A stretch of 64,000 nucleotides of DNA from an uncultured Gammaproteobacteria bacterium (GTDB lineage Bacteria > Patescibacteriota > Microgenomatia > UBA12405). Position numbers and translations under genes: made by a program. Numbering within the stretch: the stretch's first letter is position 1; every line of letters starts with the position of its first letter. The notes under the pieces are model-generated. The model was not told the origin of the DNA. It saw only the letters and a program-made list of their open reading frames with translations, and searched no databases. The stretch lies in the NCBI GenBank assembly GCA_964503465.1, contig CAZCYZ010000001.1:298306-362305 (forward strand). Reading direction: 5' to 3'. This document shows positions 28,233 through 55,184 of this stretch, one piece after another.

Positions 28233-28314
28233 ATATGTACAATAAATAAGATTACAGGCTATTATACCGAACCTTTGGTAGCTTGTCAACCACGGCTTTG
28301 CTATACTCTTAGAC

Positions 28315-29037
28315 ATGACCAAAGCCTACCTTCTTCCAGAACTATCTGTCTTTTTTCCCTGTTACAACGTCGAAAAATCTTTTCCCGAAACATTCAGCAA
28401 AACAATCAGTACTCTTCAGAAAATCACCCCTAAATGGGAGGTAATCCTAATCGAGGATGGCTCATACGACGGCACCAAAAAAGTAGTCACCAATTTAGCC
28501 AAAAAATACCCCAAAAACGTTCGGGTCATTTACCATCCCCAAAACTGGGGATATGGAGGCACCATCAAACAAGGCTTGTTTTCGTCTAAATATCAATGGG
28601 TCACTTTTACTGATTCGGATGGTCAGTTCGATTTTTCCGAAATAACCAAGCTAATTTCCGCCCAAAAAAAACACCAAGTCAAAGTTGTTTTGGGCTACCG
28701 TATCAAAAGAGTTGATCCCCCAATCAGGCTATTTATAGGTTTTATGCTCAAAATTTGGTGTTATCTTTGGTTTGGATTTTGGGGGGTCAAAGATATTGAT
28801 TGTGGATTCAAGTTATTCCACAAAGAGGTCCTCGATAAGGTTGGTTCTCTTAAAACAGATAGTGCCATTACCTCAACTGAACTTCTAATTCGTATCCAAA
28901 GACTCGGGTATCAGTGGTCTCAGGTCGGTGTTCATCACTACGAAAGAAAATATGGCAAACAAACCGGATCCAATTTTAAGGTGATGAAGAAAGCCGCCAT
29001 TGACTCAATCAATCTATGGAAAGCTCTTCGGCAATAA
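28315..29037 (+). CDS. GT2 polyprenol-phosphate sugar synthase (DPM1/GtrB/ArnC-like)
   Basis: LSVFFPCYNVEKSFPETF...VILIEDGSYDGT and TDSDGQF (DxD). Its size and motifs resemble Dpm1. Confidence 0.75.
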   Translation: MTKAYLLPELSVFFPCYNVEKSFPETFSKTISTLQKITPKWEVILIEDGSYDGTKKVVTNLAKKYPKNVRVIYHPQNWGYGGTIKQGLFSSKYQWVTFTDSDGQFDFSEITKLISAQKKHQVKVVLGYRIKRVDPPIRLFIGFMLKIWCYLWFGFWGVKDIDCGFKLFHKEVLDKVGSLKTDSAITSTELLIRIQRLGYQWSQVGVHHYERKYGKQTGSNFKVMKKAAIDSINLWKALRQ

Positions 29038-30437
29038 TCAAATTCTGGCATAAAAACTGGCATATCAGTATCGTTATCCTGATAGCCGCTGTTCTTAGAC
29101 TTTATCAGATAGGGGACTATATGGAGTTTCTGGGTGATCAGGGTCGAGATATGGTTATTGTTCGTGATTTTCTCAAAAATGGGAACCTCTTTTTTATTGG
29201 TCCCCAAACCAGCATTGGCAACATGTATCTTGGGCCATTTTATTATTATCTTATTGCCCCATCGCTTTGGCTTGCAAATTACAACCCTATTGGTCCAGCC
29301 ATTCTTGTCGCTTTAATAGGAGTTGCCACCGTGGCACTGATTTACTTTGTCACCGCCAAGTGGTTTGATCCCAAGACTGCCCTGATTGCCGCCTTTTTGT
29401 ATGCTTCCTCGCCTACTGTTATTAAGTATTCAAATTTTTCTTGGAATCCCAACGTTATGCCTTTTTTCTCCCTTTTATTTATCTATCTTTTTTGGCGAAA
29501 GAATTATATTTTGGCTTCGTTTGCCTTTATTATGGCACTCAATTCTCACTTCTTGGCACTATTGCTGCTTCCTACTGCTTTTGTTATTTGGCTTCAAAAT
29601 CGGAGCCATCACCAATCGTTACGTCCAATTATCATCGCCGCGGCTATTTTTCTTATCTCCTTAACTCCACAAATTCTTTTTGATATCAAGCACCAAGGTC
29701 AAAACATTAAAGCAATCACTGGTTTTTTTACCAAACGCGAAACCACCGTCAACGCCAAACTTTACAAAGCTATTCCCAAATTATTCCCTCTTCATTTTCA
29801 AATTACCACCAGTCTTCCTGCGGCCAGGAATCAACTCCTCGGCTATATTATTGGCACCATTCTCATATTTGGCACGATCTATCTTTTGATCATTTCTGAC
29901 TTCCGCCACTACTTTCTTCTGTGGTGGTACCTCGTCGGTCTTATCGGTCTCGGGGTTTACAAGCAACATGTTTACGATCATTATTTTGGATTTATTTTTC
30001 CAGTACTTTATATAATTCTTGCCAAAATAATCACTAAACACCATTACCTTGGTTATTTAATCATTATCCCAATACTTATATTTTCGGTATCAAATTCCCC
30101 CCTCCGTCACCCCTTAAAACAACTCTCCTCCAATCAAAAAATCACCCAACTTATTAATCAAAACTCCAATGGTCAACCATTCAATTTTGCCCTTATTGCA
30201 AAACAAAATTACGATCCACCCTATCTTTATTTTTTTTATCAATCAGGTAGTCCTGTTTATCATATTAACAACAAGCTAACCGATCAACTCTTTGTTGTTT
30301 GTGAGCCATTCCAGGTCGATTGCAACCCCATCAATCACCCCGAATGGTCTATTGCCGCTTTTGGTTGGGCCAAAATAGACAACCAATGGCAAGTTGACGA
30401 CAAGATTGTTTATCGCTTGGTTCATACTCAACCATGA
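29016..30437 (+). CDS. polytopic GT-C-type membrane glycosyltransferase (PMT_2/ArnT-like), paralogue A
   Basis: 473 aa with at least 10 TM helices. N-terminal loop motif FLGDQGRD. Follows the DPM1-like GT2. Confidence 0.55.
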   Translation: MESSSAIIKFWHKNWHISIVILIAAVLRLYQIGDYMEFLGDQGRDMVIVRDFLKNGNLFFIGPQTSIGNMYLGPFYYYLIAPSLWLANYNPIGPAILVALIGVATVALIYFVTAKWFDPKTALIAAFLYASSPTVIKYSNFSWNPNVMPFFSLLFIYLFWRKNYILASFAFIMALNSHFLALLLLPTAFVIWLQNRSHHQSLRPIIIAAAIFLISLTPQILFDIKHQGQNIKAITGFFTKRETTVNAKLYKAIPKLFPLHFQITTSLPAARNQLLGYIIGTILIFGTIYLLIISDFRHYFLLWWYLVGLIGLGVYKQHVYDHYFGFIFPVLYIILAKIITKHHYLGYLIIIPILIFSVSNSPLRHPLKQLSSNQKITQLINQNSNGQPFNFALIAKQNYDPPYLYFFYQSGSPVYHINNKLTDQLFVVCEPFQVDCNPINHPEWSIAAFGWAKIDNQWQVDDKIVYRLVHTQP

Positions 30438-31909
30438 AATATTATTTTATTATCTTTATCTGGCTTAGTGCTCTTTTTCTGCGCTGTTACCGCCAGTCAG
30501 TTCTTCTTGGTTTTTACTATGATCAGGGTCGCGACGCTTTTATTGCTCGAGACATCATCACCACCAAAAACTTCCCCACCATCGGCCCCACCACCGGTAT
30601 TCAGGGCCTTCATCTTGGACCGTTTTGGTACTATCTAATTACTCCCGGTTATCTCTTTGGTCAAGGTAGTCCTGTTATTGCTTCGTATTTCATTGCCTTT
30701 ATAGAAAGCCTTACTGTTCCGCTGATCTTTATGACTCTCAGTCGATATTGGAGTATTCCATCAGCTGTTTTTACTTCCACTCTCTGGGCGTTTAGTTATT
30801 ATATTATTCGTTCAGCCCGTTGGTTTTCCAATCCCTCCCCACTGCCATTTTTTGTTATCCTCATGATTTTTTTTCTGGCCAAAATAATAATTGATAAAAA
30901 AACAAAATTTTTTCCCTACTTAGTTCTTCTTTTTGGTCTTTCCCTTCAGCTTGAAGCAGCTTCAGCCATTTTCTTTTTCCCGTCAATTGCCATTATCCTT
31001 TTCCTTCACCGGCCAATTTTAAAAAGAATTAAGTTTCAGCAGTACGTTTTTGCCGTTGGCCTGTTTCTACTCCTTCTGGTCCCGCAACTGCTTTTTGATT
31101 TAAAAAACAAATTTTTAATCCTCGGTAACTTCCTCAAATTTTTCACCGGTAATCTCAATACCATTCACGGACAAAGCTGGGCCATTCCCAACAAACAATT
31201 CTTGCTACAACGATTAGTTGAGTATTATCGTATATTTTTTTCCAAACTTGACACCAACCTCACCCCAATCGCCATTATCCTTCTTTGTTTATTTGTAATC
31301 AGCCTCATTTTTACCATCAGCAAATATCGCCACCGGCCATTTCTTCAAATAATCTTGGCTTGGCTATTTGTTCCACTCGCACTTCTCTTGTTTTTCATTG
31401 GTAATTATGGTCGACTCTACGACTATTATTTGACTGGTTTTTTTGTTTCCTTTTTTATTCTTTTTGGTATTAGTCTTACCTCGATCCCTGTTCTTCCCAT
31501 TATTGTTTTTGTTTTGTTTATAAAAGGTAATTTTGTTTTTATTCGAAACTACCTTTCTGCTAACCCCGACGGTCCGCAGCACATTAGTCTTGGCAACCAA
31601 CTCCAGGCCCTAAAACACGTTTGCCAAATTACTGGCAATCAACCATACCTACTCAACATCTATCTCCCCGCCATTGTCCCGACCACTTATGACTACTTAT
31701 TAGCCTGGCTTAATAGTCAAGGTTATTGTCAACTACCTCTTCCAACCGATGACCACCAAAACCCATACATTTTTTCACTTTACGAAGTGGATCAGGACCA
31801 TCCTGAACGAATCGAAAAATGGTTAGATGCTCAAAATGTGGTTTATCCCGTTATTTCTCAAACCCACTTCGGTGGTATAGTAGTTCAACAGCGATCAAGA
31901 CCAAAATGA
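30434..31909 (+). CDS. polytopic GT-C-type membrane glycosyltransferase, paralogue B
   Basis: 491 aa and multi-TM. The loop motif YYDQGRDAFIARD matches paralogue A. ATGA overlap with paralogue A. Confidence 0.55.
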   Translation: MKYYFIIFIWLSALFLRCYRQSVLLGFYYDQGRDAFIARDIITTKNFPTIGPTTGIQGLHLGPFWYYLITPGYLFGQGSPVIASYFIAFIESLTVPLIFMTLSRYWSIPSAVFTSTLWAFSYYIIRSARWFSNPSPLPFFVILMIFFLAKIIIDKKTKFFPYLVLLFGLSLQLEAASAIFFFPSIAIILFLHRPILKRIKFQQYVFAVGLFLLLLVPQLLFDLKNKFLILGNFLKFFTGNLNTIHGQSWAIPNKQFLLQRLVEYYRIFFSKLDTNLTPIAIILLCLFVISLIFTISKYRHRPFLQIILAWLFVPLALLLFFIGNYGRLYDYYLTGFFVSFFILFGISLTSIPVLPIIVFVLFIKGNFVFIRNYLSANPDGPQHISLGNQLQALKHVCQITGNQPYLLNIYLPAIVPTTYDYLLAWLNSQGYCQLPLPTDDHQNPYIFSLYEVDQDHPERIEKWLDAQNVVYPVISQTHFGGIVVQQRSRPK

Positions 31910-32682
31910 CCCCCCCAATAGCCATTTCCATTATTATTCCCTGTTACAACGAAGAAGAAAATCTCAAAAGAGGTGTTCTGTTGGAGATGGATAAGTTTTT
32001 GTCCACTCAGAAGTTTGATTATGAAGTTATCATCAGTAACGATCAGTCAACCGACAACAGCCTTAAGTTGATCCAGGATTTTACTAGTAAACATCCCCAC
32101 TTCAAGGTTTTTAGTTTCCCCAAGGGTGGTAAACCAGGTGCTATCTGGAACGGCCTCCAGAAAGCCAAATATCCGTATTCTCTATTCACCGACATGGACC
32201 AATCCACCCCCATTAAGGAAATTCTCAAATTTATACCCTATTATCAGCAGAATTTTGATATTATTATTGGATCGCGTGGCCTGGAACGTCAGGGACAAAG
32301 TTTATTGCGCCAACTTGGTTCAACTGTTTTTTCTACCATTCGTAATTTTTTATTGCATACTCACATCGCGGATACCCAGTGTGGCTTCAAATCTATGAAG
32401 ACTAACATTGCTCTAAAATTGTTCCCTCAACTGGCTGTTATTAAAAATATTCAAAACGGTCAAGGTTGGCGAGTCACTGCCTATGATGTTGAACTCCTAT
32501 TTATCGCCCAGAAACTTGGCTACAAAATTAAAGAAATTGCAGTTAACTGGAAAAACGAGGACACTAGCATCACCAAAGGCAATATTACTGCTCGATATAT
32601 TAGGGAATCGAAACAAATGGCTAAGGAAGTTTGGCGAATTTTTGTCAATAATCTTAAGGGGCTATATGACTCCCAAAATTAA
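31906..32682 (+). CDS. GT2 polyprenol-phosphate sugar synthase (DPM1/GtrB-like)
   Basis: The start was set at the ATG at 31906 (ATGA overlap). ISIIIPCYNEEENL...ISNDQSTDNS and TDMDQS. Confidence 0.7.
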   Translation: MTPPIAISIIIPCYNEEENLKRGVLLEMDKFLSTQKFDYEVIISNDQSTDNSLKLIQDFTSKHPHFKVFSFPKGGKPGAIWNGLQKAKYPYSLFTDMDQSTPIKEILKFIPYYQQNFDIIIGSRGLERQGQSLLRQLGSTVFSTIRNFLLHTHIADTQCGFKSMKTNIALKLFPQLAVIKNIQNGQGWRVTAYDVELLFIAQKLGYKIKEIAVNWKNEDTSITKGNITARYIRESKQMAKEVWRIFVNNLKGLYDSQN

Positions 32683-34099
32683 TCGGCATTTTTGGTTTTT
32701 ATTGCTTGTTTTTCTCATTCTTTACCTTGTAACGCGACTTCAAAATCTCACCGCCATTCCAGTGTTTGGTGACGAGGCTATCTATCTTCGGTGGTCACAA
32801 ATTATCAAGTCAGTTGAGACCTTGCGATTTATTCCTCTGACTGATGGCAAACAACCCCTATTCATGTGGTTGACCGTTCCGATCTTCAAGTTTGTTTCCA
32901 ACCCCCTAATTGCCGGCAGATTACTTTCAGTACTAGCTGGACTAGTTACCGCCATTACCCTGTACTTCATTACTCACACTTGGTATGCTCCTTTCTTCTA
33001 CTTAGTTATCCCATTTACTTTCTTTTTTGATCGTCTTGCCCTGTCAGATGGTCTGCTGTCAATGTTTGGAGGTCTTTCTCTTTTGTTTTCACTTCTTCTA
33101 GCTACCAACCCCAGATTAGACTTGTCGCTGATTCTTGGGGGAATACTCGGACTTAGTTGGTTGACCAAATCACCCGCCATTTTTTTTATTATCCTTGCTT
33201 TTTTTACTTTTTTAGTCTTCAATTTTAATCCCAAAAAAGTCAAGTACGTATTCTACCCATTAATTTCTCTTTTTGTCGCTTTTTGCATCTACAATGTCCT
33301 TCGTCTTGGTCCTCAATTTCATCAAATAGCACTTCGTAATCAAGATTATGTTTGGCCAATAACTGAAATTCTTCGCCACCCACTTGATCCTCTAAAGCCC
33401 CATCTTTCCGACATAGTCACTATTTTCTCTCAATACATTGGCCCAATACTTGTGTTATTACTATTGTCTCCGCGGCTTTTCTTATCATCACCCAAGTTGT
33501 CCTTAGTCCTCGTTAGTTGGTCAATCTTTCCACTTTTGGCCAATGCTATCTTTGCTAAGGTTTTTACTGCCCGCTACGTCCTTTATACCGTTCCCCCTCT
33601 CATTTCATTCATCAGTCTAACTATTAATCAATACAGATTTAAATACAAAAAATTGTTTCTTGTTCTTTGTCTTGTTCCCAACATTTATTGGCTTTACCGT
33701 ATTTCATTTAACCCCGCCACAGTTATTCTCCCTTCAACTGAAACCGGTTACCTTCAAGAGTGGACTTCGGGTTGGGGGATCAGCGACGCTGCTGGCTATC
33801 TTATCACTCGTGCCAAGGAGGCCAATGTTATTGTTGGAACCGAAGGATACTTTGGTACCCTCCCCGATGGACTTCAAATTTTTGTTAATAACGTCCCTCG
33901 GCTAACTGTCGTTGGTGTCGGTTTAGGCTTTACCCAAATACCCTCAAATCTTCTCAATGCCTATAATTTTGGTGATGAAGTTTATCTTCTTATCAATCAA
34001 TCTCGACTAAAACTTGATTCCTCCGAGCTTCAAAAACTCAAGGTAGTACGCGAGTATCCAAAGCCCGGGAATGATAAACTAGTTCTATTCCAATTATGA
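32666..34099 (+). CDS. GT-C membrane glycosyltransferase, ArnT/PMT family (DE motif)
   Basis: The start was set at the ATG at 32666. First extracytoplasmic loop reads IPVFGDEAIYLRWSQ (DE motif). At least 11 TM helices. Confidence 0.65.
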   Translation: MTPKINRHFWFLLLVFLILYLVTRLQNLTAIPVFGDEAIYLRWSQIIKSVETLRFIPLTDGKQPLFMWLTVPIFKFVSNPLIAGRLLSVLAGLVTAITLYFITHTWYAPFFYLVIPFTFFFDRLALSDGLLSMFGGLSLLFSLLLATNPRLDLSLILGGILGLSWLTKSPAIFFIILAFFTFLVFNFNPKKVKYVFYPLISLFVAFCIYNVLRLGPQFHQIALRNQDYVWPITEILRHPLDPLKPHLSDIVTIFSQYIGPILVLLLLSPRLFLSSPKLSLVLVSWSIFPLLANAIFAKVFTARYVLYTVPPLISFISLTINQYRFKYKKLFLVLCLVPNIYWLYRISFNPATVILPSTETGYLQEWTSGWGISDAAGYLITRAKEANVIVGTEGYFGTLPDGLQIFVNNVPRLTVVGVGLGFTQIPSNLLNAYNFGDEVYLLINQSRLKLDSSELQKLKVVREYPKPGNDKLVLFQL

Positions 34100-35760
34100 G
34101 TCGGGTCTACCTCCTAATTTTATTATTGCTCACCCTTCCTGCTACTGCCTTCCTCTTCAGGCCAGGTGAATATTGGAACATGCACGATGATATGCAAATG
34201 GTTCGACAGCTGGAACTAGAAAAATGCTTACTAGACGGCCAAATTCCTTGTCGTTGGGTTCCTGATTTGGGTTTTGGTTACGGTTACCCATTGTTTAATT
34301 TTTATCCCCCCTTCCCTTATTTTGTTGGTCAAGTTTTCCGTCTTTTTAGTTTTTCATTCGTTGCCACTGTTAAATTAACTGCCATTACTCAAATTATCGC
34401 CTCTTCGCTAACTATGTTTCTTTTAGCTTCGTCACTTTTTGGTAATCTTGGTGGTCTTATTGCCGCTTTGTTTTATGTTTATGCCCCATATCACGCTCTT
34501 AATATCTTCGTTCGTGGGGCTATGAACGAAGCCTGGGCATCTGTTTTCTTTCCCCTCATTTTTTATTTCGGTCGCCGTCTTATTAACAAACCGCAACTAT
34601 CGTCAATCTTTTTTCTGGCCATTTCTTATGCCGGCATACTGCTTTCCCACAACCCCATGGCCTTAATCATTGCTCCTTTCTTTTTCCTCTGGTGTCTTTA
34701 CTTTTTTATCAGACAACCCCGCACTAAAACTATTTTATATTTATTTCTATCCGGTGTTTTGGCTATTTCACTTTCAGCTTTCTACACCCTCCCGGTTCTC
34801 TTGGAAACTAAATATGTTCAAATAGAAAGCATGTTTCAAAATTATTACCATTTTTCAGTCCACTTTACCACTCTTTTTCAATTATTTATCAGTAATTTTT
34901 GGGGTGATGGAGCTTCAGTTTGGGGAACCGAGGACAATATGTCCTTTGCCGTTGGCTATCTCCATTGGATAATCCCGGTTTTAATTCTTGGCTACCTCAT
35001 TTTTTACTCATTAAAAAAACACAAGCGCCACCCACACCTTATTCTTGTCAGTCTAATTTTTACCATGGCCTTGACCACTCTTTTTATGACTCATAATAAG
35101 TCAACTCCAATTTGGTTACTTGCTAAATTTATCCAAAAGATTCAATTCCCCTGGCGCTTTCTTAATTTAAGCGTTTTTTTTACCAGTCTCCTAGTTGGGG
35201 TTTTAGGAAAACTCTCTCGCCCAATCACTATAATTGTCATTCCCGCTCTTATTATTCTCAATCTGCGTTACTTTACCCCCCTCACTCACGGGCCAATTAC
35301 AGATCAACAAAAATTTTCTGGTCAATCATGGACCTACCAGATTACCTCAGGTATTTATGATTATCTCCCCAAAACTGCTCGAATTGCCGCCCAGTCAAAA
35401 GCCACTGAATTTATCGATCAAACAGATCCTAAGACGTCATATCAGTTAACTGGTCAAAAACACGGAACTGACTGGTTGTTCTTCAACCTTTCACTTCCTC
35501 AAACCACTACAGTTACTATGTCTCAGTTAGCATTTCCCAAATTTGTTATCACTGACAACGGTCGCCAAATAAACTACCAAATCGAACCCGAGTTGGGGCG
35601 AATGGTAATAAGTTTGCCCGCTGGAACCCATCAGCTTTATCTTAAACTCCACAATACTCCCGTTCGTACATTCTCAAACATTGTTAGCTGCCTAGCTATT
35701 CTTTTAGTTGTCATATATTTTTCTTTACGCCATTCCACCTCATGGATCAACAAGAAATAA
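34096..35760 (+). CDS. large polytopic membrane protein, GT-C-like (YfhO / PTPS-related-type)
   Basis: 554 aa. MHDDMQMVRQLELEKCLLDGQIPCRWVPDLGFGYGYPLFNFYPP, about 11 TM helices and a C-terminal soluble domain. Confidence 0.4.
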   Translation: MSRVYLLILLLLTLPATAFLFRPGEYWNMHDDMQMVRQLELEKCLLDGQIPCRWVPDLGFGYGYPLFNFYPPFPYFVGQVFRLFSFSFVATVKLTAITQIIASSLTMFLLASSLFGNLGGLIAALFYVYAPYHALNIFVRGAMNEAWASVFFPLIFYFGRRLINKPQLSSIFFLAISYAGILLSHNPMALIIAPFFFLWCLYFFIRQPRTKTILYLFLSGVLAISLSAFYTLPVLLETKYVQIESMFQNYYHFSVHFTTLFQLFISNFWGDGASVWGTEDNMSFAVGYLHWIIPVLILGYLIFYSLKKHKRHPHLILVSLIFTMALTTLFMTHNKSTPIWLLAKFIQKIQFPWRFLNLSVFFTSLLVGVLGKLSRPITIIVIPALIILNLRYFTPLTHGPITDQQKFSGQSWTYQITSGIYDYLPKTARIAAQSKATEFIDQTDPKTSYQLTGQKHGTDWLFFNLSLPQTTTVTMSQLAFPKFVITDNGRQINYQIEPELGRMVISLPAGTHQLYLKLHNTPVRTFSNIVSCLAILLVVIYFSLRHSTSWINKK

Positions 35761-37187
35761 TTTCTATTAAAACAAAATCCACTAGCAGTGTTCTGTTTCT
35801 TACACTTCGCAACATCGGTATCCAATCTGTTTCCCTGATAGGCTTTTTTCTTTTAACCATTCTTTTGGGTCCAGCCGAAGTTGGTTTATTTGCCATAGTG
35901 GCCGAGTCTATTAGTATTTTAGGGTACTTTTCCGATCTTGGCTTAGCCGCTGCCTTAATTCAACAATCCAAAAAAGTCGACCGCCAAGAACTCCAAACCA
36001 GTTTTTTTGTTCAACAAGTTCTTGTCCTTATATCCTTATCTTTAGTAATTTATATTTACTCGCGAGTTCAGTTTCAAAAGTCATATGGCTCAAAAGAACT
36101 TTGGATTTTTGTTTCTCTTTGTTTTTCTTATTTAACTGCTTCACTCAAAACCATTCCTTCAGTCCTTTTGGAAAGGAAACTTAACTTTCAGCTCATTTCT
36201 ACTATCGATATTGTTGAAAATCTCACTTTTTACATTTTAGCGGTTGTTTTTGCTTATTTTGGTTATGGGGGATACTCTTATGCCATCGCCACCTTTTTCC
36301 GCAGTCTAATTGGTCTTGTGATGATCTACCATTATCAACCCTGGCCAATTGGTGTCTCTTTTTCACTTCCAACTCTCAAGTCTCTTTTTCGCTTCGGCAT
36401 TCCTTTTCAAGTTAACTCACTCATTGCCATGGCCAAAGATCGACTATCCAATCTTGTCGTTGCTGGCATCATTGGTCGTGAAGGTTTTGGTCTTTTGTCT
36501 TGGGCCCAGAAAGGGCCTCGTCTTCCACTCTCACTTATGGATGCAGTCATGAGAGTCACCTTTCCCACCTTTTCCCGACTTCAGCACGAACCAAAACTCT
36601 TATCAATTTCTCTCAAAAAAACGGTTTTTTATGTTTCCTTCTTTGTTTTCCCCATTATCACCGGTATTGCTCTGGTGGCCGGTGACGTTATCAATATAAT
36701 TCCCAAATATTCCAAATGGTCACAAGCTTTATTCCCTCTCTATTTGTATGCTGTTAATTACGCCATTGCCGCTATTACTACCCCACTCACCAATGCCTTC
36801 AATGCTGTTGGTCAAATTACTACCACCACTAAATTCATGGTTATGTGGACCGTTCTCACCTGGGTACTTTACCCGCCTCTTAGTATTCATTATGGTTACT
36901 CTGGCACTGCCATCGCCTCACTCTTGGTTGGTCTAAGCTCTTTTGTTGTTTGGCATCAAGCCAGCAAGATTTTTCAGCTAAATATTTTTTTCTCGGTTCT
37001 TCATCCACTACTCTCATCCCTCCTTATAATTATTACCATTGTCCTCATCAATCCACCCCTGCTTCTCAAAGTCTTTTTTGGAATATTAATTTATTCACTT
37101 TATCATTATTATTTTTCCCGTCCAGAAATTATTTGGCTTAAAAACGAAATTGTATGTCACTTCGGCAAAAAATCCTCTTTGCGTTAA
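35742..37187 (+). CDS. Wzx-like oligosaccharide flippase (MOP superfamily)
   Basis: 481 aa with 12-14 TM helices. The LRNIGIQSVSLIGFFLLTILLGPAEVGLFAIV start is typical of polysaccharide-biosynthesis flippases. Confidence 0.65.
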   Translation: MDQQEIISIKTKSTSSVLFLTLRNIGIQSVSLIGFFLLTILLGPAEVGLFAIVAESISILGYFSDLGLAAALIQQSKKVDRQELQTSFFVQQVLVLISLSLVIYIYSRVQFQKSYGSKELWIFVSLCFSYLTASLKTIPSVLLERKLNFQLISTIDIVENLTFYILAVVFAYFGYGGYSYAIATFFRSLIGLVMIYHYQPWPIGVSFSLPTLKSLFRFGIPFQVNSLIAMAKDRLSNLVVAGIIGREGFGLLSWAQKGPRLPLSLMDAVMRVTFPTFSRLQHEPKLLSISLKKTVFYVSFFVFPIITGIALVAGDVINIIPKYSKWSQALFPLYLYAVNYAIAAITTPLTNAFNAVGQITTTTKFMVMWTVLTWVLYPPLSIHYGYSGTAIASLLVGLSSFVVWHQASKIFQLNIFFSVLHPLLSSLLIIITIVLINPPLLLKVFFGILIYSLYHYYFSRPEIIWLKNEIVCHFGKKSSLR

Positions 37188-38839
37188 CTCTTTTTATCTG
37201 CGTTATTTCGCAAACACTACCGATTATTCGTAGCGGCCTACATTATTCCTATGGTTTGGGTTTTTGGGGACCAATGGGACACGACGGCATTTGGCATTTA
37301 GCACTCATCAATCAAATCCGTAATCCATTTCACATCCCCGCACCAAGTTTTGCTGGAGAATTGCTCCAAAACTATCACCCATTTTTTGATATATTCATTG
37401 CCTTCTTTAGTTCCCTAACTCACATTTCTGCCTCCATTTGGCTTTTTCAAATCGGTCCCATCCTGATTTCGTTAGCTTTTCTTGTGTTAAGTTTTGTTCT
37501 GGGGTACCGTCTCACTCATCGTTACCTTGGTGGGATTATATTAGTATTTCTCAATACGTTTTCCAATTCATTCGGCTGGCTAGTTAGCTTGACCCGAGGG
37601 CAGGGGATTGGCGGAGAGTCCTTGTTTTGGTCAATGCAACCACCCTCATTTCATCTTAATCCACCATTTGCTTTATCGATGGTTTTTATTTATTTACTTC
37701 TTATCATTGCCTGCTTTAATCAAAAAAAATTCTCAGTCACCTCTTCGATCCTAGTAGTCACCATTCTTGGTCTATTACCCATCACCAAGGCCTACGCTGG
37801 TGTAGCTGCGTTTCTGTTTTTTGGTTTCTATTCTCTTTATCAACTTATTCAACGGCACTACCGCCCACTGGTTATCCTTTGCGCTTCATTTGTTGTTGCC
37901 ATATGTATATTTCGAATATACAACCATAGTTCAATTAGTTTGATTCAATATCAACCATTTTCATTAATCAACAGTATGATCGACTCCCCTGATCGGTTCT
38001 ACCTCCCCCGTGTCAGTAGTTTTCGTCAAAATATATCCTCATCAAATGTTTTTGACCCCCGATTAATTGTCGTAATTTTGGGATCAGTTTCCATCTTCAT
38101 TGTCGGAAATTATTCATGGAGGCTGTTGGGTTTTACAATTTCTCGCCAACGGATCAAAGATTATTTCATCGGACCAATCATATTGACCATCATTCTACTC
38201 ACTCTTTTCCCCATCCTTTTTGTTCAACAAGCAACTGCTTGGAACATAGTTCAATTTCTCTATTACGCTATATTCCTATCAAACATTCTTCTAGTTGTAT
38301 TTCTTGTACCTCGCTTGTCATCTACTTTTTTTAGTCTCGCCACTATTGTTATTTTTAGCACTTCAATTTTGGCTGTTATCCCCACTTATCAAAACTATCT
38401 TGGCAATCCATCACCTGCATCTCTTCCTGTTGGTGAACTTGAGGCATTAAGTTTTTTACGTCTTCAGCCAACCGGAATCGTTCTCACCTACCCCTATGAT
38501 CCCGAAGTTAAAAAGGGATATTCTAGTACCCCAATCCCACTTTATGCTTATGAAACCACCGCGTACGTCTCCGCTTTTTCTCATCACCGAACCTTCCTTG
38601 AGGACCAAATGAATCTTAACAATTCTGCTTATAACTGGCAGTCTCGACTCGATGCTGTCAACAAGTTTTTTTCTCAACAATCAGTTTTTACCAATCGAGG
38701 ATTCTTGCTTAACAATCAAATCGATTACATCTACCTTACGACCACCCAGGCTAAATTAATCCAACTTTCTGAAACCGCTATTTCGGTCGAAATAATCTTT
38801 CAAAACTCCTCCGCCGTCATCTATCGGGTTAAAAAATGA
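37154..38839 (+). CDS. large polytopic membrane protein (putative polymerase or GT-C-like)
   Basis: 561 aa and multi-TM. WGPMGHDGIWHLALINQ sits in the first loop. A C-terminal soluble domain. No secure family. Confidence 0.35.
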   Translation: MSLRQKILFALTLFICVISQTLPIIRSGLHYSYGLGFWGPMGHDGIWHLALINQIRNPFHIPAPSFAGELLQNYHPFFDIFIAFFSSLTHISASIWLFQIGPILISLAFLVLSFVLGYRLTHRYLGGIILVFLNTFSNSFGWLVSLTRGQGIGGESLFWSMQPPSFHLNPPFALSMVFIYLLLIIACFNQKKFSVTSSILVVTILGLLPITKAYAGVAAFLFFGFYSLYQLIQRHYRPLVILCASFVVAICIFRIYNHSSISLIQYQPFSLINSMIDSPDRFYLPRVSSFRQNISSSNVFDPRLIVVILGSVSIFIVGNYSWRLLGFTISRQRIKDYFIGPIILTIILLTLFPILFVQQATAWNIVQFLYYAIFLSNILLVVFLVPRLSSTFFSLATIVIFSTSILAVIPTYQNYLGNPSPASLPVGELEALSFLRLQPTGIVLTYPYDPEVKKGYSSTPIPLYAYETTAYVSAFSHHRTFLEDQMNLNNSAYNWQSRLDAVNKFFSQQSVFTNRGFLLNNQIDYIYLTTTQAKLIQLSETAISVEIIFQNSSAVIYRVKK

Positions 38840-44336: not shown

Positions 44337-45556
44337 TTTTGGGTTTTTGTGTTCGACTCATGCTGCTATTAATCTCGGCCTCTCATCCGGATGTCGGTAA
44401 TCATCTCGACTGGGGAAATAAATTTTGGCAATACGGCCCAAATACTTTCTATCAGCAATCGATTTGGAAGGTCTCCTGGCCAAATCAACCAATTGGTAGT
44501 ATCTACCTTTTTGCGGCTCTCTCCTGGATCAATCAAAAAACCTTTTCCTTTTTTTGGTATCTCAACACTCAATACCCTATTTTTCCATCAAAGCTAATTC
44601 CCATCCTTGAGGCCAATCTTCATGTTTGGTTAGTCAAAATCCCGTTTCTAGCTGCCGATATCCTGTTGGCCTATTTAATATATCTTGCCACCAACAAACG
44701 AAAAATATTTTCAGTGTTGTTTCTATTCAACCCGGCAGTAATCTATAACTCAACTGTTTGGGGTCAAACAGATTCTCTTATTAATTTACTTTCTTTGGCC
44801 GGAATTTTTTTAGTCTATCATCGCCAATTTTTGGGAGGCACGTTTCTTTTCTTAGGATCTCTACTTTTTAAAATGTCACTTCTAATTTATTTACCTGTTT
44901 TTATTTGGCTCCTTTTTCTCTACCGTCGTGATTGGCTCAAATGGTCTATAGCCATACTCCTATTTTTGGCCCTAACTATAGTTTTAGCGATTCCATTTTC
45001 AATCAATCAAAACCCACTCACCTGGCTATCCCATCTATATCGCGACCTAGTTTTTAATCGTCAAGGACACATGCTCAATGGTAATGCTTTTAATCTCTGG
45101 TTAATTGTTTTTGGTGTTAGTTTAAGTCGACTCGACAATTATCCCATCTTTGGTTTTCCAACCTCATTAATTGCCTTCATCATATTTGGGCTAAGTTTCT
45201 TGCCTCTGGCTTCCAAATATGTTCGCCAAGAATCCTCGCTCAAAAACATCTGGAATTTTCTTTTTTTAACATCTTTTGCCAGTTTTCTCTTTCTGACCAA
45301 TATGCATGAACGTTATTTTTATCCCATCATGCCTCTTTTACCAATACTTCTTTATTATCGTCTAATCAACTTTCAGCTTTTTATATTCCTCAGCCTTACC
45401 CATCTCCTTAATCTTTATAATCTTTGGTTTTATCCTCTCATTCCCTGGATCAAATTAACTCTAGAATCCTTTAATTATCTTCTCCCGCGCCTATTATCTT
45501 CGCTCCTTATCATCATTTACCTTAAATTTTGGATAAAATATATACAAAGTGAATAG
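44315..45556 (+). CDS. polytopic membrane protein, GT-C-like (DUF2029/GT87-like)
   Basis: About 413 aa and multi-TM. HPDVGNHLDWGNKFWQ sits in loop 1. Confidence 0.4.
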   Translation: MSFRFILILGFCVRLMLLLISASHPDVGNHLDWGNKFWQYGPNTFYQQSIWKVSWPNQPIGSIYLFAALSWINQKTFSFFWYLNTQYPIFPSKLIPILEANLHVWLVKIPFLAADILLAYLIYLATNKRKIFSVLFLFNPAVIYNSTVWGQTDSLINLLSLAGIFLVYHRQFLGGTFLFLGSLLFKMSLLIYLPVFIWLLFLYRRDWLKWSIAILLFLALTIVLAIPFSINQNPLTWLSHLYRDLVFNRQGHMLNGNAFNLWLIVFGVSLSRLDNYPIFGFPTSLIAFIIFGLSFLPLASKYVRQESSLKNIWNFLFLTSFASFLFLTNMHERYFYPIMPLLPILLYYRLINFQLFIFLSLTHLLNLYNLWFYPLIPWIKLTLESFNYLLPRLLSSLLIIIYLKFWIKYIQSE

Positions 45557-47147
45557 GTGGTTGTTACTAGTCTTATTAGTAGCTTTTTTCGTTAGAGTCT
45601 ATCGACTAGACACCTTGACCCTTTTTGGTGACGAAATTGATGTTGGCAACCAAGCCTATTCACTCCTGACTACCGCCAAAGACTATCGAGGTAACCTTCT
45701 ACCTAGTTATCTTCAGTCGTTTACTGAGTCACGCGCTCCTTTGTTAATCTATTTAACCGTTCCCTCAGTCGCCATTTTTGGCCGCAATGAATATGGGGTC
45801 AGATTACCAGCTGTAGTTTTTGGTCTCGCTTCCATTTTAGGTTTCTATCTTCTTTCATATCGTCTCACTAAATCAAACAAGATCTCTCTTTTGGCCAGTC
45901 TTCTTCTTTCAGTCACCCCTTGGCATTTTCATTACAGCCGCGCTGCCTTTGAGGTCACCCTACTTTTGTCTTTACTTATTTTTGCCACTTGGTTTTATCT
46001 TCAGTCAAAGCCAATTACCTCTCTGGTTCTTTTTGCTCTTTCTTTTTATACCTACAACACCGCCAACGTTTTTACTCCACTGCTTCTCCTGTTTCTCTGT
46101 CTAACCCACCATCTTCCTTTCAAAAAAGTTTTTCCCGGTCTAATCTTATCCCTGATTGTGGTTCTGCCATTACTCTTTCAAATCATTCTTGGTCAAGCCG
46201 GTAATCGCTTCAGTCTCATTAGCGTCTTTAATAGTTCCCAAATCATTAACCAGATTGTTGATCAACGAATCTCCGTCTCTTCCGGCCCCCCATCTTTTTT
46301 TGAAAGAATCTTTCACAACAAACTAATTGCCTATCCAGTCACCATCACCACCAATTACCTTACCAGTTTTTCTCCCCAATTTATTTTTTTTAACGGTGAC
46401 CCCAACCCACGCCACCAAGTTCCCAACTTTGGTCCGTTACTTTTGATCTTCGCTCCCTTACTGATTATCGGACTGTTAAAATATCATCAAAAGTATCCCC
46501 TATTTCTTTTTTGGTTGTTGATTTCTCCTATTGCCTCATCGCTAACCGTTGATGGTGGTCAACATGCCACCAGACTTTTCACTATGCTTCCTCCACTAAT
46601 ATTTTTTACCACCATCGGCCTTCAGTCTTTAAACTTTAAAACTCTGGCCTTACTCACCCCACTCATTTTTATGAATTTCACTCTCTATCTTCATCAATAT
46701 TTTGTTCACCTTCCCAAAATTAATTTTTCCAGTTGGAATTATGGTCAAAAGTATCTTTATTCCACCCCCATTCCTCCATCATCACCAGTGTATGTCAGTA
46801 ATACCAATTTCGATTCGCTCAATTCTTATATTTTTTATCAACATCAAAATTCCCAACTTACTCAAGACCCTTCGTTTAGCGACGTGGAACAAGCCAATGT
46901 CATTGACAACCTTCCCGGATTTAAACTTAACCCCAATACTTATTTTATTAACAATTGGCAAACCCCCGACACTCTCAACCTCATTCAGCAAACGGCCAAA
47001 AAAGGCAATATATATTTCCTTCTTCAGCTTAAAGATATTCCCGGTGATTGGGACCTAACCAAAAGCCCACTTCCAGGTTTTGTCACTCTTAATACCGTCT
47101 ACTTACCCAATCACCAAATTTACGGTCAAGTTATTCAAAAACTGTGA
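45549..47147 (+). CDS. GT-C ArnT/PMT-like membrane glycosyltransferase, tandem paralogue 1
   Basis: GTG start overlapping the upstream stop. TLFGDEIDVGNQAYSLL carries the DE motif. About 11 TM helices and a C-terminal soluble domain. Confidence 0.6.
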   Translation: MNRWLLLVLLVAFFVRVYRLDTLTLFGDEIDVGNQAYSLLTTAKDYRGNLLPSYLQSFTESRAPLLIYLTVPSVAIFGRNEYGVRLPAVVFGLASILGFYLLSYRLTKSNKISLLASLLLSVTPWHFHYSRAAFEVTLLLSLLIFATWFYLQSKPITSLVLFALSFYTYNTANVFTPLLLLFLCLTHHLPFKKVFPGLILSLIVVLPLLFQIILGQAGNRFSLISVFNSSQIINQIVDQRISVSSGPPSFFERIFHNKLIAYPVTITTNYLTSFSPQFIFFNGDPNPRHQVPNFGPLLLIFAPLLIIGLLKYHQKYPLFLFWLLISPIASSLTVDGGQHATRLFTMLPPLIFFTTIGLQSLNFKTLALLTPLIFMNFTLYLHQYFVHLPKINFSSWNYGQKYLYSTPIPPSSPVYVSNTNFDSLNSYIFYQHQNSQLTQDPSFSDVEQANVIDNLPGFKLNPNTYFINNWQTPDTLNLIQQTAKKGNIYFLLQLKDIPGDWDLTKSPLPGFVTLNTVYLPNHQIYGQVIQKL

Positions 47148-48721
47148 AAATAAAAATTATTTTAGCCACATTAATTGTCCTTGGCACATTTTTGCGATTT
47201 TACCGTTTAGGTGATCTTCCTAATTCCTATACTCCCGACGAAATCGCTCAAGGGTACACCGCATATTCAATCATTAAAACCGGCCACGACGAGTGGGGTG
47301 ATCATAACTTTTTATCCCTCCGCTCTTTTGGGGATTTCAAGCCAAGTCTTCAAACCCTACTTATGATCCCTTTCGTCAAGGTTTTTGGTCTTACTCCATT
47401 TGCCATCCGTCTTCCTAATGCTGTTCTTTCTATCCTTTTAATCCCGCTTACATTTGTTTTGGCTCAAAAACTCCTTTTTAACTCTTCCGTTTCCATACTA
47501 GCTACTCTGCTAGTTACCCTCTCTCCCATTACACTTCCTTTGTCACGCCTTGCCCTTGAGGCTAATCTCTTGGTAATCATTAATCTGATTGCTGTTATCC
47601 TTTTTTTGACCAGTCACCGTTATTTCTCACTCTTATTTTTTAGTTTGAGTTTAATCACCTATCATTCAAGCAAAATACTATTTCCACTAATTTTTATCAC
47701 ACTAATTCTCTTCTACAAACGCAGTCGTCGCCTAGTTACTTTGGCTCTAATTTTTTACGTTACCGTCTCACTGCTAACATCTTTCAATCGTACCACTGAT
47801 ATCGCTATCTTTAATCCTACCGATTCTTGGTCATCAGTTTCTGAATCACGTTTCCAGGCTACCAAATCAGGCCTTCCTGACTCCATTAGTCGCATATTTA
47901 ATAATAAGGTCACTTATACATTTTTTCTTTTTGCACATAATTATCTTTCTTATTTTTCTCCTCAGTTCTTAGCCACCAGTGGTGCCGGCGAAACCACTTA
48001 TGGCATGATCCCAGGGCAGGGGATTTTAGGTATCATCCCTTTTTTGGGTCTTTGTTTAGCACTCGTTTTTCTTCTTAGAACTAAGAATAAATCACTCTTG
48101 TTTCTTTTTGTAATTGTTCTGATTACTCCCATTGCTGCCGCCTTGTCAAAAGGTAGTTATTCCGCCAATCGCCTAAGCTCCATCAGCCCCTACATTCAAA
48201 TACTCGCCGCCTACGGTCTTTTTCAATTATTTCAGCTTCGTCATCGCTGGCTCAGTCTACTTCTTGTGGCATTTCTTTCTTTTGAAATAGGAAATTTCCT
48301 GGTTACTTATTTCTTTCGGGCCAATCAGATCCTCGCCCCAGGCATGCTTTATGGCCATCGTCAAGCTCTCGAATACCTTCGTCAATATTCCAATTCAACT
48401 ATTATCTATTCTCGTCGCCTTTCTGAACCGCAAGCATATGTCAGTTTTTTTAACCAAGTTGACCCCTTTATTGTCCAACAGGCCTCAACCCAATGGCTTA
48501 ATTATCAAGGCAAAGGCCTTAAGTTTCTGGACCAACTAGGTGAATACCATCTTCAAAATTATCTTTTTAAAGAAATTAACTTTTCCTCCGATAGTCAAAT
48601 ACCCAACTCCATCCTGGTTGGTCGCCCAGAAGAGTTTCCCGGTGTCACCCCAAGTAAAATAATTTTCTATCCGGACTTCAATCATCTTAGCCCAGCCATT
48701 TATATCTATCACTCTCAATGA
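47144..48721 (+). CDS. GT-C ArnT/PMT-like membrane glycosyltransferase, tandem paralogue 2
   Basis: GTG start (GTGA overlap). YTPDEIAQGYTAYSIIKTGHDEWG...RSFGDFKP. Confidence 0.65.
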   Translation: MKIKIILATLIVLGTFLRFYRLGDLPNSYTPDEIAQGYTAYSIIKTGHDEWGDHNFLSLRSFGDFKPSLQTLLMIPFVKVFGLTPFAIRLPNAVLSILLIPLTFVLAQKLLFNSSVSILATLLVTLSPITLPLSRLALEANLLVIINLIAVILFLTSHRYFSLLFFSLSLITYHSSKILFPLIFITLILFYKRSRRLVTLALIFYVTVSLLTSFNRTTDIAIFNPTDSWSSVSESRFQATKSGLPDSISRIFNNKVTYTFFLFAHNYLSYFSPQFLATSGAGETTYGMIPGQGILGIIPFLGLCLALVFLLRTKNKSLLFLFVIVLITPIAAALSKGSYSANRLSSISPYIQILAAYGLFQLFQLRHRWLSLLLVAFLSFEIGNFLVTYFFRANQILAPGMLYGHRQALEYLRQYSNSTIIYSRRLSEPQAYVSFFNQVDPFIVQQASTQWLNYQGKGLKFLDQLGEYHLQNYLFKEINFSSDSQIPNSILVGRPEEFPGVTPSKIIFYPDFNHLSPAIYIYHSQ

Positions 48722-50247
48722 TTTTAATACTCTTCTTAATTGCTCTTATTCCTCGAATTATCTCCATCAGTTTCCTTCCTCCAAGCCTCAATTGGGATGA
48801 AGTTTCGCATGGTTACAACGCTTATTCCCTACTTTCTACCGGCAAAGACGAGTGGGGACACTCTCTGCCTCTTATTTTTCAAGCCTATGGTGACTACAAA
48901 CTACCACTATATGTTTATCTCACCACCATTCCGGTTGCCATTTTCGGGCTTAATCCTTTGTCGGTTCGTTTAATTTCAATTTTGGCTGGTAGTCTTCTCC
49001 CAATTGTTATCTATTTTTTCCTCAAAAAGTTCATTTCTTCAACTTCAGCCTTTATTACCAGTCTTGTGATTGCACTCTCTCCCTGGTCAATTTTTCTTTC
49101 CCGAATCGCCGTCGAAGCCAACCTTTTTCTTTTCCTCTATATCACCTCGCTCTACTTCCTTTCTCGACACCGGTTCGCTTATAGTACTTTTTTTTACGCT
49201 CTATCACTTCTAACCTACAACAGCAGCCGGGTACTTATATTTCCATATTTTTTAGCCACTTTTTTCATTGCCCGCCAACAGCATTATTCATTTCTAAAAA
49301 ACTTACCAAAATTTATCTTTCCTGCACTAGTATTCGTCGTTGTTCTCATTCAGTCTTCTTCACCCGCAGGTCAAGCTCGCTATCAGTGGGTCTCTATTCT
49401 TGATTCCGGTGCCATCAACCATATTGAACAACTTCGTCAAAAATACCCCAGAATTCTAGTTAACAAAGTTACCTATTTTACCTATCAAACAACCAAGAAT
49501 TATCTGGCTCATTTTAACCCTGCCTACTTATTCTTAAATGGGGGATCACATTATCAATTCAACATCCCTCAGTTTTATCTTATCAGTCCTCTACTTATAC
49601 CATTCCTCTTGCTTGGTTTTTTGGCACTCAAAAAATACCCCTTAATACTCTTCTTTCTTCTTGTTTCACCACTCCCTTCTGCTATTACCCGCGACGCTCC
49701 ACAAATTCTTCGCAGTCTAGCCTTTTTACCCCTTATCTCAATGGTCATTGGGCTTGGAATTAATCACAGTCTCAAAAATAAACCTTTCTTTTTCCTGAGT
49801 TTATTTTTTCTCTTTTTAACATTAGTCATTTCTCAAGTCCAATTTTGGTCAAGTTACCAAGAATATCGATATCAATATTCTCAGTCTTGGCAGTACGGTC
49901 ATCAACAACTAGTCAATAGCGTTAAATCAAAATACTCACGGTACCAAAAAATAATCGTCACCAAAAGATATGGTGAACCACATGAGTTTTTTCTTTTCTT
50001 CTGGCCATGGCCTCCTCAAGATTACCAAAAAAACAAACTATGGGACTATCATGCCAACTGGTACTGGATTAATGGTTTTGATAAGTTCACCTTCGTCAAC
50101 GATTGGGACATCAAAGACCTTTCTATCGCACCATCTACTTTATTAGTCACCAGTCCAGGTAATTTCCCGTCGGGAAGCCACCGCCTCCTCGAGACTATTA
50201 ATTTCCTTGACGGCCAACCAGCTTTTGATCTTATTAGCTATGAATAA
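48718..50247 (+). CDS. GT-C ArnT/PMT-like membrane glycosyltransferase, tandem paralogue 3
   Basis: ATGA overlap. NWDEVSHGYNAYSLLSTGKDEWG...QAYGDYKLP. The C-terminus has YGEPHEFFLFFWPWPP. Confidence 0.65.
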   Translation: MILILFLIALIPRIISISFLPPSLNWDEVSHGYNAYSLLSTGKDEWGHSLPLIFQAYGDYKLPLYVYLTTIPVAIFGLNPLSVRLISILAGSLLPIVIYFFLKKFISSTSAFITSLVIALSPWSIFLSRIAVEANLFLFLYITSLYFLSRHRFAYSTFFYALSLLTYNSSRVLIFPYFLATFFIARQQHYSFLKNLPKFIFPALVFVVVLIQSSSPAGQARYQWVSILDSGAINHIEQLRQKYPRILVNKVTYFTYQTTKNYLAHFNPAYLFLNGGSHYQFNIPQFYLISPLLIPFLLLGFLALKKYPLILFFLLVSPLPSAITRDAPQILRSLAFLPLISMVIGLGINHSLKNKPFFFLSLFFLFLTLVISQVQFWSSYQEYRYQYSQSWQYGHQQLVNSVKSKYSRYQKIIVTKRYGEPHEFFLFFWPWPPQDYQKNKLWDYHANWYWINGFDKFTFVNDWDIKDLSIAPSTLLVTSPGNFPSGSHRLLETINFLDGQPAFDLISYE

Positions 50248-54145: not shown

Positions 54146-55184
54146 CATATCGCCAACTATCGATGGTAACGCAGTTCGTGGTATTGGCTACTACACCAAG
54201 AATTTAGTCTCTGCAATTCAATCCGAGGTCAAAACCAACCCACACTACCACAATTGGCAAATCAATCTAATCACCAGTCCACAATCGTTAACCTCTAATT
54301 ATCAACTTATCCACTACCCATACTTCGATCCTTTCAAGCTTACTCTGCCCCACCGACAATCAGTTCCCACCATCGTCACTGTTCCCGATTTGATACCCAT
54401 CCAATTTGCCAAACATTTTCCGGTTGGTGTTAAGGGTCAAATCAAATGGTTAATTCAAAAAAACCAACTCAAAAAAACGACCTATATCATCACCATTTCT
54501 CACTATGTCAAACATGTCATCAGGAATATCATTGGTTACCCCAAGGATCGTATTTTTGTTACCTGGCTAGACGCGTCTTTAATGTCTCAGCCAGTTAAAA
54601 ACAACTTTAAAACCATGGTCCAAAAATATAATTTACCGCCTAAATTCATCCTCTATGTCGGTGACGTTAATTGGAACAAAAATATTCCCAATCTAGTTCG
54701 CGCCTGTTTATCTCTAGGCTATCATTTGGTTATCGCTGGTGCTTCAGCCACTAAATCCGTCCCAGACCATCCTTGGACCCAAGATATCATTTGGTTGCAG
54801 CAACAAAAATCTCCTTTCCTCCACCTTCTAGGATTTGTTCCAGATGAAGACAAACCTTATCTCTTCAAATTAGCCACCATTTACTGTCAACCGTCTTTTT
54901 CCGAAGGCTTTGGTATTCCCCCTGTCGAAGCCATGAAGTCTGGTTGTCCAGTTGCTTATAGTCAAGAAAGCAGTCTCCCAGAAGTCATGGATTTTTGCGG
55001 TGAGTTCTTTGATCCCTACTCTGTTGATTCAATTAAATCTAGTCTCCAAAAACTTTGGACCAACCAAAAGCTTCGTCAAAAATATATCCGGCTCGGTCTT
55101 GCCAGAGGTAAAGTTTTTGATTGGAAATATACCGCCCTTCAAACACTCGCCATCTATCAGCTAGCCTTATTAAATGAAAGATAA
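54126..55184 (+). CDS. GT4 (GT-B) glycosyltransferase
   Basis: The start was set at the ATG at 54126. C-terminal FSEGFGIPPVEAMKSGCPV. Confidence 0.65.
   Translation: MPKIAIDISPTIDGNAVRGIGYYTKNLVSAIQSEVKTNPHYHNWQINLITSPQSLTSNYQLIHYPYFDPFKLTLPHRQSVPTIVTVPDLIPIQFAKHFPVGVKGQIKWLIQKNQLKKTTYIITISHYVKHVIRNIIGYPKDRIFVTWLDASLMSQPVKNNFKTMVQKYNLPPKFILYVGDVNWNKNIPNLVRACLSLGYHLVIAGASATKSVPDHPWTQDIIWLQQQKSPFLHLLGFVPDEDKPYLFKLATIYCQPSFSEGFGIPPVEAMKSGCPVAYSQESSLPEVMDFCGEFFDPYSVDSIKSSLQKLWTNQKLRQKYIRLGLARGKVFDWKYTALQTLAIYQLALLNER

Follow-up and report, generated by a model that had tools for sequence, protein, structure and literature searches.

Paired genes for polyprenyl-phosphate sugar synthase-like GT2 proteins and GT-C membrane proteins in a probable envelope-glycan operon of Candidatus Shapirobacteria

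The addition of sugars to molecules outside the bacterial cytoplasm can proceed by way of a lipid-linked monosaccharide. Synthesis of an undecaprenyl-phosphate sugar, its flipping across the membrane and its transfer by a GT-C glycosyltransferase follow one another in the GtrA/GtrB/GtrC (PMC11127046), CsbB/GtcA/YfhO and ArnC/ArnE-F/ArnT systems. In Streptococcus pyogenes, the cytoplasmic GT-A protein GacI works with the membrane protein GacJ, the Wzx-type GacK and the GT-C GacL (PMC8035078). Mycobacterial Ppm1, a synthase devoid of transmembrane segments, either interacts with the membrane protein Ppm2 or is joined to it in one polypeptide (PMC3485146). Both Ppm2 and GacJ stimulate their partner synthases. 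For the transporters proposed to flip polyprenyl-phosphate sugars, direct evidence of activity is lacking (PMC11127046). In this study, we analysed a stretch of 64,000 nucleotides (hereafter the window) of contig CAZCYZ010000001.1, positions 298,306 to 362,305, in which two genes for GT2 glycosyltransferases, GT2_A and GT2_D, are each followed by genes for GT-C membrane proteins, GTC_B and GTC_C in one case and GTC_E in the other (Table 1). Among the described systems, the locus most closely resembles the Gac variant, in which a synthase without a transmembrane segment is combined with a Wzx-type gene.

It is likely that each of these two modules makes a lipid-linked sugar on the cytoplasmic side and transfers it on the outside, and that both belong to an envelope-glycan operon, a run of about 36 kb, in a genome of Candidatus Shapirobacteria (Microgenomates, candidate phyla radiation (CPR)). 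This explanation is favoured because the sequence matches, the structure models and the conservation of gene order agree, and gene fusions in related lineages add support to it. A preliminary description of the same DNA had located the five genes correctly and had likened them to the ArnC/ArnT, GtrB/GtrC and Ppm1/Pmt systems; this comparison is supported by the same sequence and model-based evidence.

Both GT2 proteins match PF00535 in Pfam (GT2_A, E 3e-26; GT2_D, E 1e-22). In a sequence search of the PDB, the best solved relative of GT2_A was ArnC (4.7e-13, residues 7-219), and those of GT2_D were GtrB (5ekp, 4.2e-13, residues 4-190) and then DPMS (2.5e-10), in agreement with the DPM1/GtrB-like character first proposed for both. 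A third protein, GT2_55174, matched DPMS (5mlz, 1.4e-14) over residues 8-222. Among the NCBIfam models, those of ArnC, PpgS and the haloarchaeal dolichyl-phosphate hexose transferase matched GT2_A over nearly its full length; PgfS was best for GT2_D, with further matches to ArnC and the dolichyl-phosphate hexose transferase, and PpgS covered residues 10-214 of GT2_55174. These assignments hold at the level of the family and not of the orthologue, because all scores were below the equivalog cutoffs. The three proteins are also linked to one another by blastp, with GT2_D showing 26% identity with GT2_A and 29% with GT2_55174 in alignments of about 200 residues. Similarity to lipid-phosphate transferases extends over nearly the full length of GT2_A and GT2_55174.

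The AlphaFold (AF2) model of GT2_A (predicted local distance difference test (pLDDT) 92.8, predicted template modelling score (pTM) 0.89) has a GT-A fold. When this model was compared with the PDB by Foldseek, the top 25 matches consisted only of ArnC, GtrB and DPMS (TMq up to 0.78), which is the likeness to GtrB and DPMS that had been anticipated. The structural match takes in the region past the catalytic core, since the alignments span 225-245 columns for a model of 240 residues. GT2_A carries the metal and nucleotide-sugar motif D-x-D(-x-Q) as D100-S-D102-G-Q104; the two aspartates and the glutamine show no variation in 55 homologues and line up with DADLQ in ArnC. The helix at residues 136-153 (PIRLFIGFMLKIWCYLWF) has the highest mean hydrophobicity of any helix in the model (0.57), and the helix at residues 221-239 is amphipathic. 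In the model, these two helices correspond to the membrane-interface helices of polyprenyl-phosphate glycosyltransferases, an assignment made on mean hydrophobicity, as the hydrophobic moment alone did not separate them from ordinary surface helices. The GT2 chains terminate after the second interface helix. Taken together, the sequence matches and the model of GT2_A support the view that GT2_A, GT2_D and GT2_55174 are GT2 proteins of the DPM1-like polyprenyl-phosphate sugar synthase type.

Two further candidates for this type were rejected. The preliminary description had named the GT2 genes at 55174 and 55977 as DPM1-like, and only the former can be retained: the best family match of GT2_55977 is MftF-like, the protein has one predicted transmembrane segment, and its only PDB match is GalT1. 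The GT2 at 6119, tried as a fourth synthase, is closer to chondroitin-synthase-type GT2s.

GTC_B, GTC_C and GTC_E are multi-pass membrane proteins, as had been proposed. Their scores with the Pfam family PMT_2 were 28.7, 25.8 and 27.6 bits, respectively, against a gathering threshold of 26.1 bits, so that GTC_B and GTC_E pass, at the borderline. GTC_C is regarded as a GT-C protein because it is 29% identical to GTC_B (blastp, E 3e-21); it also retains every invariant column of the GT-C family alignment. Direct sequence searches of the PDB with GTC_B or GTC_E gave chance matches only. The model of GTC_B (AF2; pLDDT 89.7, pTM 0.90) has a polytopic GT-C core, and in Foldseek its top 36 PDB matches all belonged to the GT-C superfamily, with ArnT (5ezm) as the best (TM 0.59-0.64), followed by AglB/STT3, ALG12, Pmt4 and ALG9. 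A beta-rich, external C-terminal domain of GTC_B is conserved. The DQGRD motif noticed earlier in GTC_B and GTC_C lies in the first external loop of GTC_B as D41-Q-G-R-D45 and is invariant across 55 sequences (both proteins and 53 homologues); FGDEAIYLRW was likewise found in GTC_E, where G-D-E-A-I-Y falls in the first loop. An acidic motif is present in the first loop, predicted to be extracytoplasmic, of all three proteins. The public annotation of GTC_B (P0121, 438 aa) begins at Met36 and so omits the first transmembrane segment; the start of the 473-aa protein at 29016 is backed by homologues of 466-479 aa that cover 98% of the query.

The remaining GT-C candidates of the window were linked to GTC_B by blastp or hhalign. 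In hhalign, the probabilities for GTC_B were 98.1% with GTC_E, 99.5% with the five tandem genes further downstream and 96.9% with MP_F, a PTPS_related protein, compared with about 3% for the Wzx control; GTC_E gave 99.0% with the tandem family. MP_F gave 93-97% with the three GT-C families and ranks as a distant member of the superfamily. The tandem paralogues are 27-34% identical in pairs. Together with GTC_B, GTC_C, GTC_E and MP_F, they bring the GT-C superfamily genes of this 64-kb window to nine, in a genome that is very small.

All junctions from GT2_A to MP_F overlap. The preliminary description had stated that coupling is by ATGA throughout; this sequence occurs at the junctions GTC_B/GTC_C, GTC_C/GT2_D and GTC_E/MP_F, and the two junctions between a synthase-like gene and its GT-C neighbour are longer overlaps of 22 nt (GT2_A/GTC_B) and 17 nt (GT2_D/GTC_E). 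The pairing was followed in 80 loci with GT2_A relatives (39-62% identity; Microgenomates and a few other bacteria) and in 2 loci found by exact look-up. The open reading frames (ORFs) of these 82 loci were labelled by iterative searches with the window proteins, and pairs were counted only over loci with enough downstream sequence, 73 for GT2_A. A GTC_B/C-type gene lies directly downstream of the GT2_A orthologue in 48 of the 73 loci (GTC_B itself in 47), typically with an overlap of 4-19 nt. Directly downstream of the GT2_D orthologue there is a GT-C gene in 31 of 41 loci, which is of the GTC_E type in 29. The adjacency of synthase and GT-C genes found in Gtr-type three-component systems is therefore present here, with overlapping genes and conserved order. 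Ten loci of the Levybacteria type differ: PTPS_related genes flank the GT2_A orthologue, and the Wzx gene comes next. The order kept in relatives is prfA, LCP, FtsEX, M23 peptidase, DUF11 (minus strand), GT2, GT-C, GT2, GT-C, MP_F, Wzx and MP_H; MP_F is conserved 3' of GTC_E, as are the position of Wzx and that of MP_H after it, and the copy number of the GTC_C paralogue ranges from 0 to 3. Several of these loci (L005, L008, L009, L026, L029, L042 and others) have a GT2 of about 380-400 aa some 1-3 kb upstream of the GT2_A orthologue. This protein, absent from the window, is related to GT2_D and GT2_55174 and adjoins a minus-strand GT-C, with which it may form a third module with a membrane-anchored synthase.

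In some lineages, the first pair has become a single protein. The orthologues of GT2_A and GTC_B form one ORF of 724 aa in a Collierbacteria locus (L047, 7983-10157) and one of 717 aa in a Beckwithbacteria locus (L057, 7986-10139), and in both the GT2 part leads straight into the first transmembrane segment of the GT-C part. A database search with the fused protein recovered about 95 clusters of 705-755 aa carrying both PF00535 and PF13231 at 36-87% identity (among P0241-P0360), many of them from Daviesbacteria. With so many clusters holding both domains, the fusion is real and widespread, and it is common in Collier-, Beckwith- and Daviesbacteria. Since GT2_A and GTC_B correspond to one polypeptide in these sister lineages, the sequences argue for a physical association of the two proteins, and for the same reason the GT-C partner probably tethers the GT2, which has no membrane anchor of its own. 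The fusion also places the DQGRD loop, which follows the first transmembrane segment, on the outside, because the fused GT2 uses a nucleotide sugar and is cytoplasmic.

In the favoured explanation, GT2_A and GT2_D would each use a nucleotide sugar to glycosylate undecaprenyl phosphate at the cytoplasmic face, held at the membrane by their interface helices and probably also by the GT-C partner. The lipid-linked monosaccharide would then be flipped, for which the Wzx-type protein is the only candidate flippase in the window. At the outer face, the cognate GT-C (GTC_B or GTC_C for GT2_A; GTC_E for GT2_D) would transfer the sugar to an acceptor of the envelope; wall glycopolymers and surface proteins are candidates, suggested by the LCP, sortase-substrate and division genes nearby. 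What is directly observed are the assignments to families and folds, the motifs, the overlaps between genes, the conservation of the pairs and the fusions, whereas the lipid carrier, the identity of the sugar, the flipping route, the acceptor and the physical complex are inferred.

Several points weigh against this explanation. None of the three GT2 proteins has a transmembrane segment in a hydrophobicity scan, and they thus lack the C-terminal transmembrane hairpin of GtrB, ArnC and PfDPMS. The preliminary description had counted on both interface helices and this hairpin, of which only the helices are present. The hairpin is no valid yardstick, however, as some members of the family do without it, among them Ppm1 D2 (PMC3485146) and GacI (PMC8035078), and because such synthases are established its absence does not refute a synthase function. 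The motif R-x-x-G-x-S-K of the C-terminal helix is altered in GT2_A to R211-K-Y-G214-K-Q-T-G218-S. In the 64-kb window, there is no GtrA-type flippase (neither a PF04138 match nor any separate ORF of 70-220 aa containing three or more hydrophobic segments), and a Wzx-type gene is found there instead. GTC_C fell 0.3 bits short of the PMT_2 gathering score. The N-terminal part of GTC_B matches the Agl23 family weakly, and the archaeal founder of that family is described as a flippase and not as a transferase (PMC11182771). The second pair showed no fusion in the 150 best GTC_E-family representatives; the family comprises 1834 representative clusters, nearly all of them separate proteins about 500 aa long. 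Finally, nine GT-C superfamily genes stand against three DPM1-like GT2 genes, so that the pairing is not one-to-one. By analogy, and given this ratio, each lipid-linked donor probably serves several transferases; one donor feeding several transferases is described in lactococci and mycobacteria (PMC8035078, PMC3485146).

The match to Agl23 raises the question whether GTC_B or GTC_C, at least, serves to move across the membrane the polyprenyl-phosphate sugar that the neighbouring GT2 synthesizes, with transfer left to the other GT-Cs of the operon. Residues 17-179 of GTC_B match the NCBIfam model TIGR03663, 'flippase activity-associated protein Agl23' (E 3e-10), GT2_A and GT2_D match the haloarchaeal dolichyl-phosphate hexose transferase model, and the lack of a GtrA gene within the window and the excess of GT-C genes over synthases would both fit. 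Haloarcula Agl23 is described as a putative hexose-phosphate-dolichol flippase, and in purified form it is reported to have moved a lipid-linked glycan across liposome membranes (PMC11182771). However, the TIGR03663 match of 39.6 bits, confined to the N-terminal third, is far from the cutoff of 126. GTC_B has an invariant acidic loop motif at the site of the GT-C catalytic residues as well as the conserved external domain, the structures nearest to it are those of true transferases, and a Wzx-type gene is already present in the operon. A pure translocator is therefore improbable, and the same evidence on GTC_B is compatible with a dual role as transferase and translocator. A bolder proposal is that in Microgenomates the synthase and the GT-C form one machine that makes, translocates and consumes the undecaprenyl-phosphate sugar without a dedicated GtrA-type flippase, the Agl23-like GT-C domain being the translocation path, with the machine encoded by two overlapping genes here and by a single polypeptide of about 720 residues in Collier-, Beckwith- and Daviesbacteria. 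Taken as a whole, we consider this proposal rather unlikely.

Two other explanations place the GT2 proteins outside the synthesis of lipid-linked monosaccharides. They might be ordinary cytoplasmic glycosyltransferases that extend an oligosaccharide linked to undecaprenyl pyrophosphate, their proximity to GT-C genes being due to the large operon they share. The operon does contain at least 8 other, conventional GT2 genes and 4 GT4 genes, the GT2s in question are without a transmembrane anchor, and every NCBIfam match is far under the equivalog cutoff. Of all the GT2s of the operon, however, only these three show similarity to ArnC, GtrB, DPMS and PpgS beyond the N-terminal, nucleotide-binding half; the specific adjacency of GT2_A with GTC_B and of GT2_D with GTC_E persists across related loci at 40-60% identity while other genes vary; and the first pair is fused in many lineages. 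We regard this alternative as quite improbable. The fusion of an N-terminal GT2 to a C-terminal part with many transmembrane segments also has a superficial likeness to membrane-embedded processive synthases of the cellulose or hyaluronan type, in which case the GT2 and its polytopic partner would polymerise and extrude a glycan directly. This is highly improbable: the membrane part has a GT-C fold and an external acidic motif and no synthase channel, the GT2 carries no QxxRW-type signature and gave no Glyco_trans_2_3 or cellulose synthase match in Pfam or NCBIfam, and its structural neighbours are non-processive lipid-phosphate transferases.

The synthase and GT-C modules share with the Gac system (variant b of Rismondo et al. 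2021, PMC8035078) a GT2 synthase without transmembrane segments, a Wzx-type flippase candidate, a GT-C and the association with an LCP-dependent wall-polysaccharide locus. Unlike that system, no small GacJ-like membrane activator was found here, the genes for the GT2 and the GT-C overlap and have become one in sister lineages, and the modules are duplicated, with many more GT-C paralogues. With the Gtr, CsbB/GtcA/YfhO and Arn systems they have in common the sequence of synthesis, flipping and GT-C transfer, GT2_A being nearest to ArnC, GT2_D to GtrB and GTC_B to ArnT; they differ in that GtrB and ArnC possess the C-terminal hairpin and in that the window has no gene for a flippase of the GtrA or SMR type and no Arn pathway genes. 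As in mycobacteria, a DPM1-like catalytic protein without transmembrane segments is adjacent or fused to a polytopic partner, and its product would feed several GT-Cs. The mycobacterial partner (D1/Ppm2), however, is a six-transmembrane protein not described as a GT-C, whereas the partner here is the consuming GT-C. A DPM1-like dolichyl-phosphate hexose synthase and a polytopic TIGR03663 protein are likewise combined in Agl22/Agl23 of Haloarcula hispanica, to which the NCBIfam matches are weak and far below the family cutoffs; that system is archaeal and dolichol-based, and Agl23 is reported as a flippase (PMC11182771).

The mechanism itself is thus well known and of an expected type, as is the gene-function call, and the noteworthy part is the coupling supported by the fusions; what appears to set these modules apart is the use of the consuming GT-C as the anchor or partner of the synthase. 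No description of a synthase partnered with or fused to its own consuming GT-C was found in the searchable literature, nor one of GT2-GT-C fusions or GT-C systems in Patescibacteria, the coverage of these searches being incomplete. A synthase tethered or fused to a GT-C provides a compact natural construct for studying substrate channelling and flipping. The locus also reveals a heavy investment of ultra-small CPR genomes in extracytoplasmic glycosylation, with nine GT-C genes and at least 12 GT2 or GT4 genes within about 36 kb, which is relevant to their episymbiotic surface biology.

The named close homologues of the window proteins are all labelled Candidatus Shapirobacteria. From GT2_A onwards, nearly every gene in the window lies on the plus strand and overlaps or abuts its neighbour, forming a co-directional run of about 36 kb with GT2_A at its head. 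Besides the GT2, GT4, Wzx-type and GT-C genes already mentioned, the run contains genes for a B12-radical SAM enzyme, a carbamoyltransferase and a methyltransferase. Genes for an LCP ligase, FtsE/FtsX and an M23 peptidase, together with a divergent DUF11 surface protein gene, lie upstream.

Table 1. Positions of the paired genes and of associated features in the window
Feature	Coordinates	Strand	Description
GT2_A	28315..29037	+	240 aa; polyprenyl-phosphate sugar synthase-like GT2 without transmembrane segment
GTC_B	29016..30437	+	473 aa; GT-C fold membrane glycosyltransferase, C-terminal beta-rich domain
GTC_C	30434..31909	+	491 aa; GTC_B paralogue, also with DQGRD
GT2_D	31906..32682	+	258 aa; second polyprenyl-phosphate sugar synthase-like GT2 without transmembrane segment
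GTC_E	32666..34099	+	477 aa; GT-C membrane glycosyltransferase, G-D-E-A-I-Y in first loop
MP_F	34096..35760	+	554 aa; PTPS_related membrane protein, PF10131 E 1.6e-8
Wzx-type (Polysacc_synt_3) flippase candidate	35742..37187	+	481 aa; PF13440 E 3e-43
MP_H	37154..38839	+	561 aa; polytopic membrane protein, ~12 hydrophobic segments
Five tandem GT-C paralogues (45549, 47144, 48718, 50207, 51780)	45549..53396	+	PMT_2 or PMT matches
GT2_55174	55174..55977	+	267 aa; third DPM1-like GT2 without transmembrane segment

Two conserved polytopic proteins of the run, MP_H and MP_44300 (44300-45556, 418 aa), had no match in Pfam or NCBIfam and no significant hhalign link to GT-C; it is possible that they are polymerase- or ligase-type proteins. 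The radical SAM enzyme with a B12-binding domain, the NodU/CmcH-type carbamoyltransferase and the SAM methyltransferase are encoded among the glycosyltransferases (56869-62857) and point to sugars that are methylated or carbamoylated. Secreted proteins encoded nearby were searched for Ser/Thr-rich stretches that might mark them as acceptors, and nothing striking emerged.

The gene for the DUF11/CLIPPER surface protein (27618-28322, minus strand) is divergent from the glycosylation operon, and its position is kept in relatives. By its sequence, the C-terminus of the protein resembles a sorting signal of the sortase type, with VPTTG ahead of a hydrophobic stretch and a basic tail, and a sortase gene is located at 7941-8648 on the minus strand. 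In a scan for promoters and terminators, the counts equalled the shuffled expectation, and the sole standout was the promoter of this divergent gene, a perfect 12/12 TTGACA-17-TATAAT (28261-28289, minus strand). Because this promoter falls inside the listed ORF, the true start of the protein is probably Met31 (at about 28232). The GC skew is negative in all 2-kb bins of the window (1-64000), ranging from -0.09 to -0.40; as nearly all genes are on the plus strand, the coding strand is C-rich throughout. The AT skew is negative as well across the membrane-protein genes.

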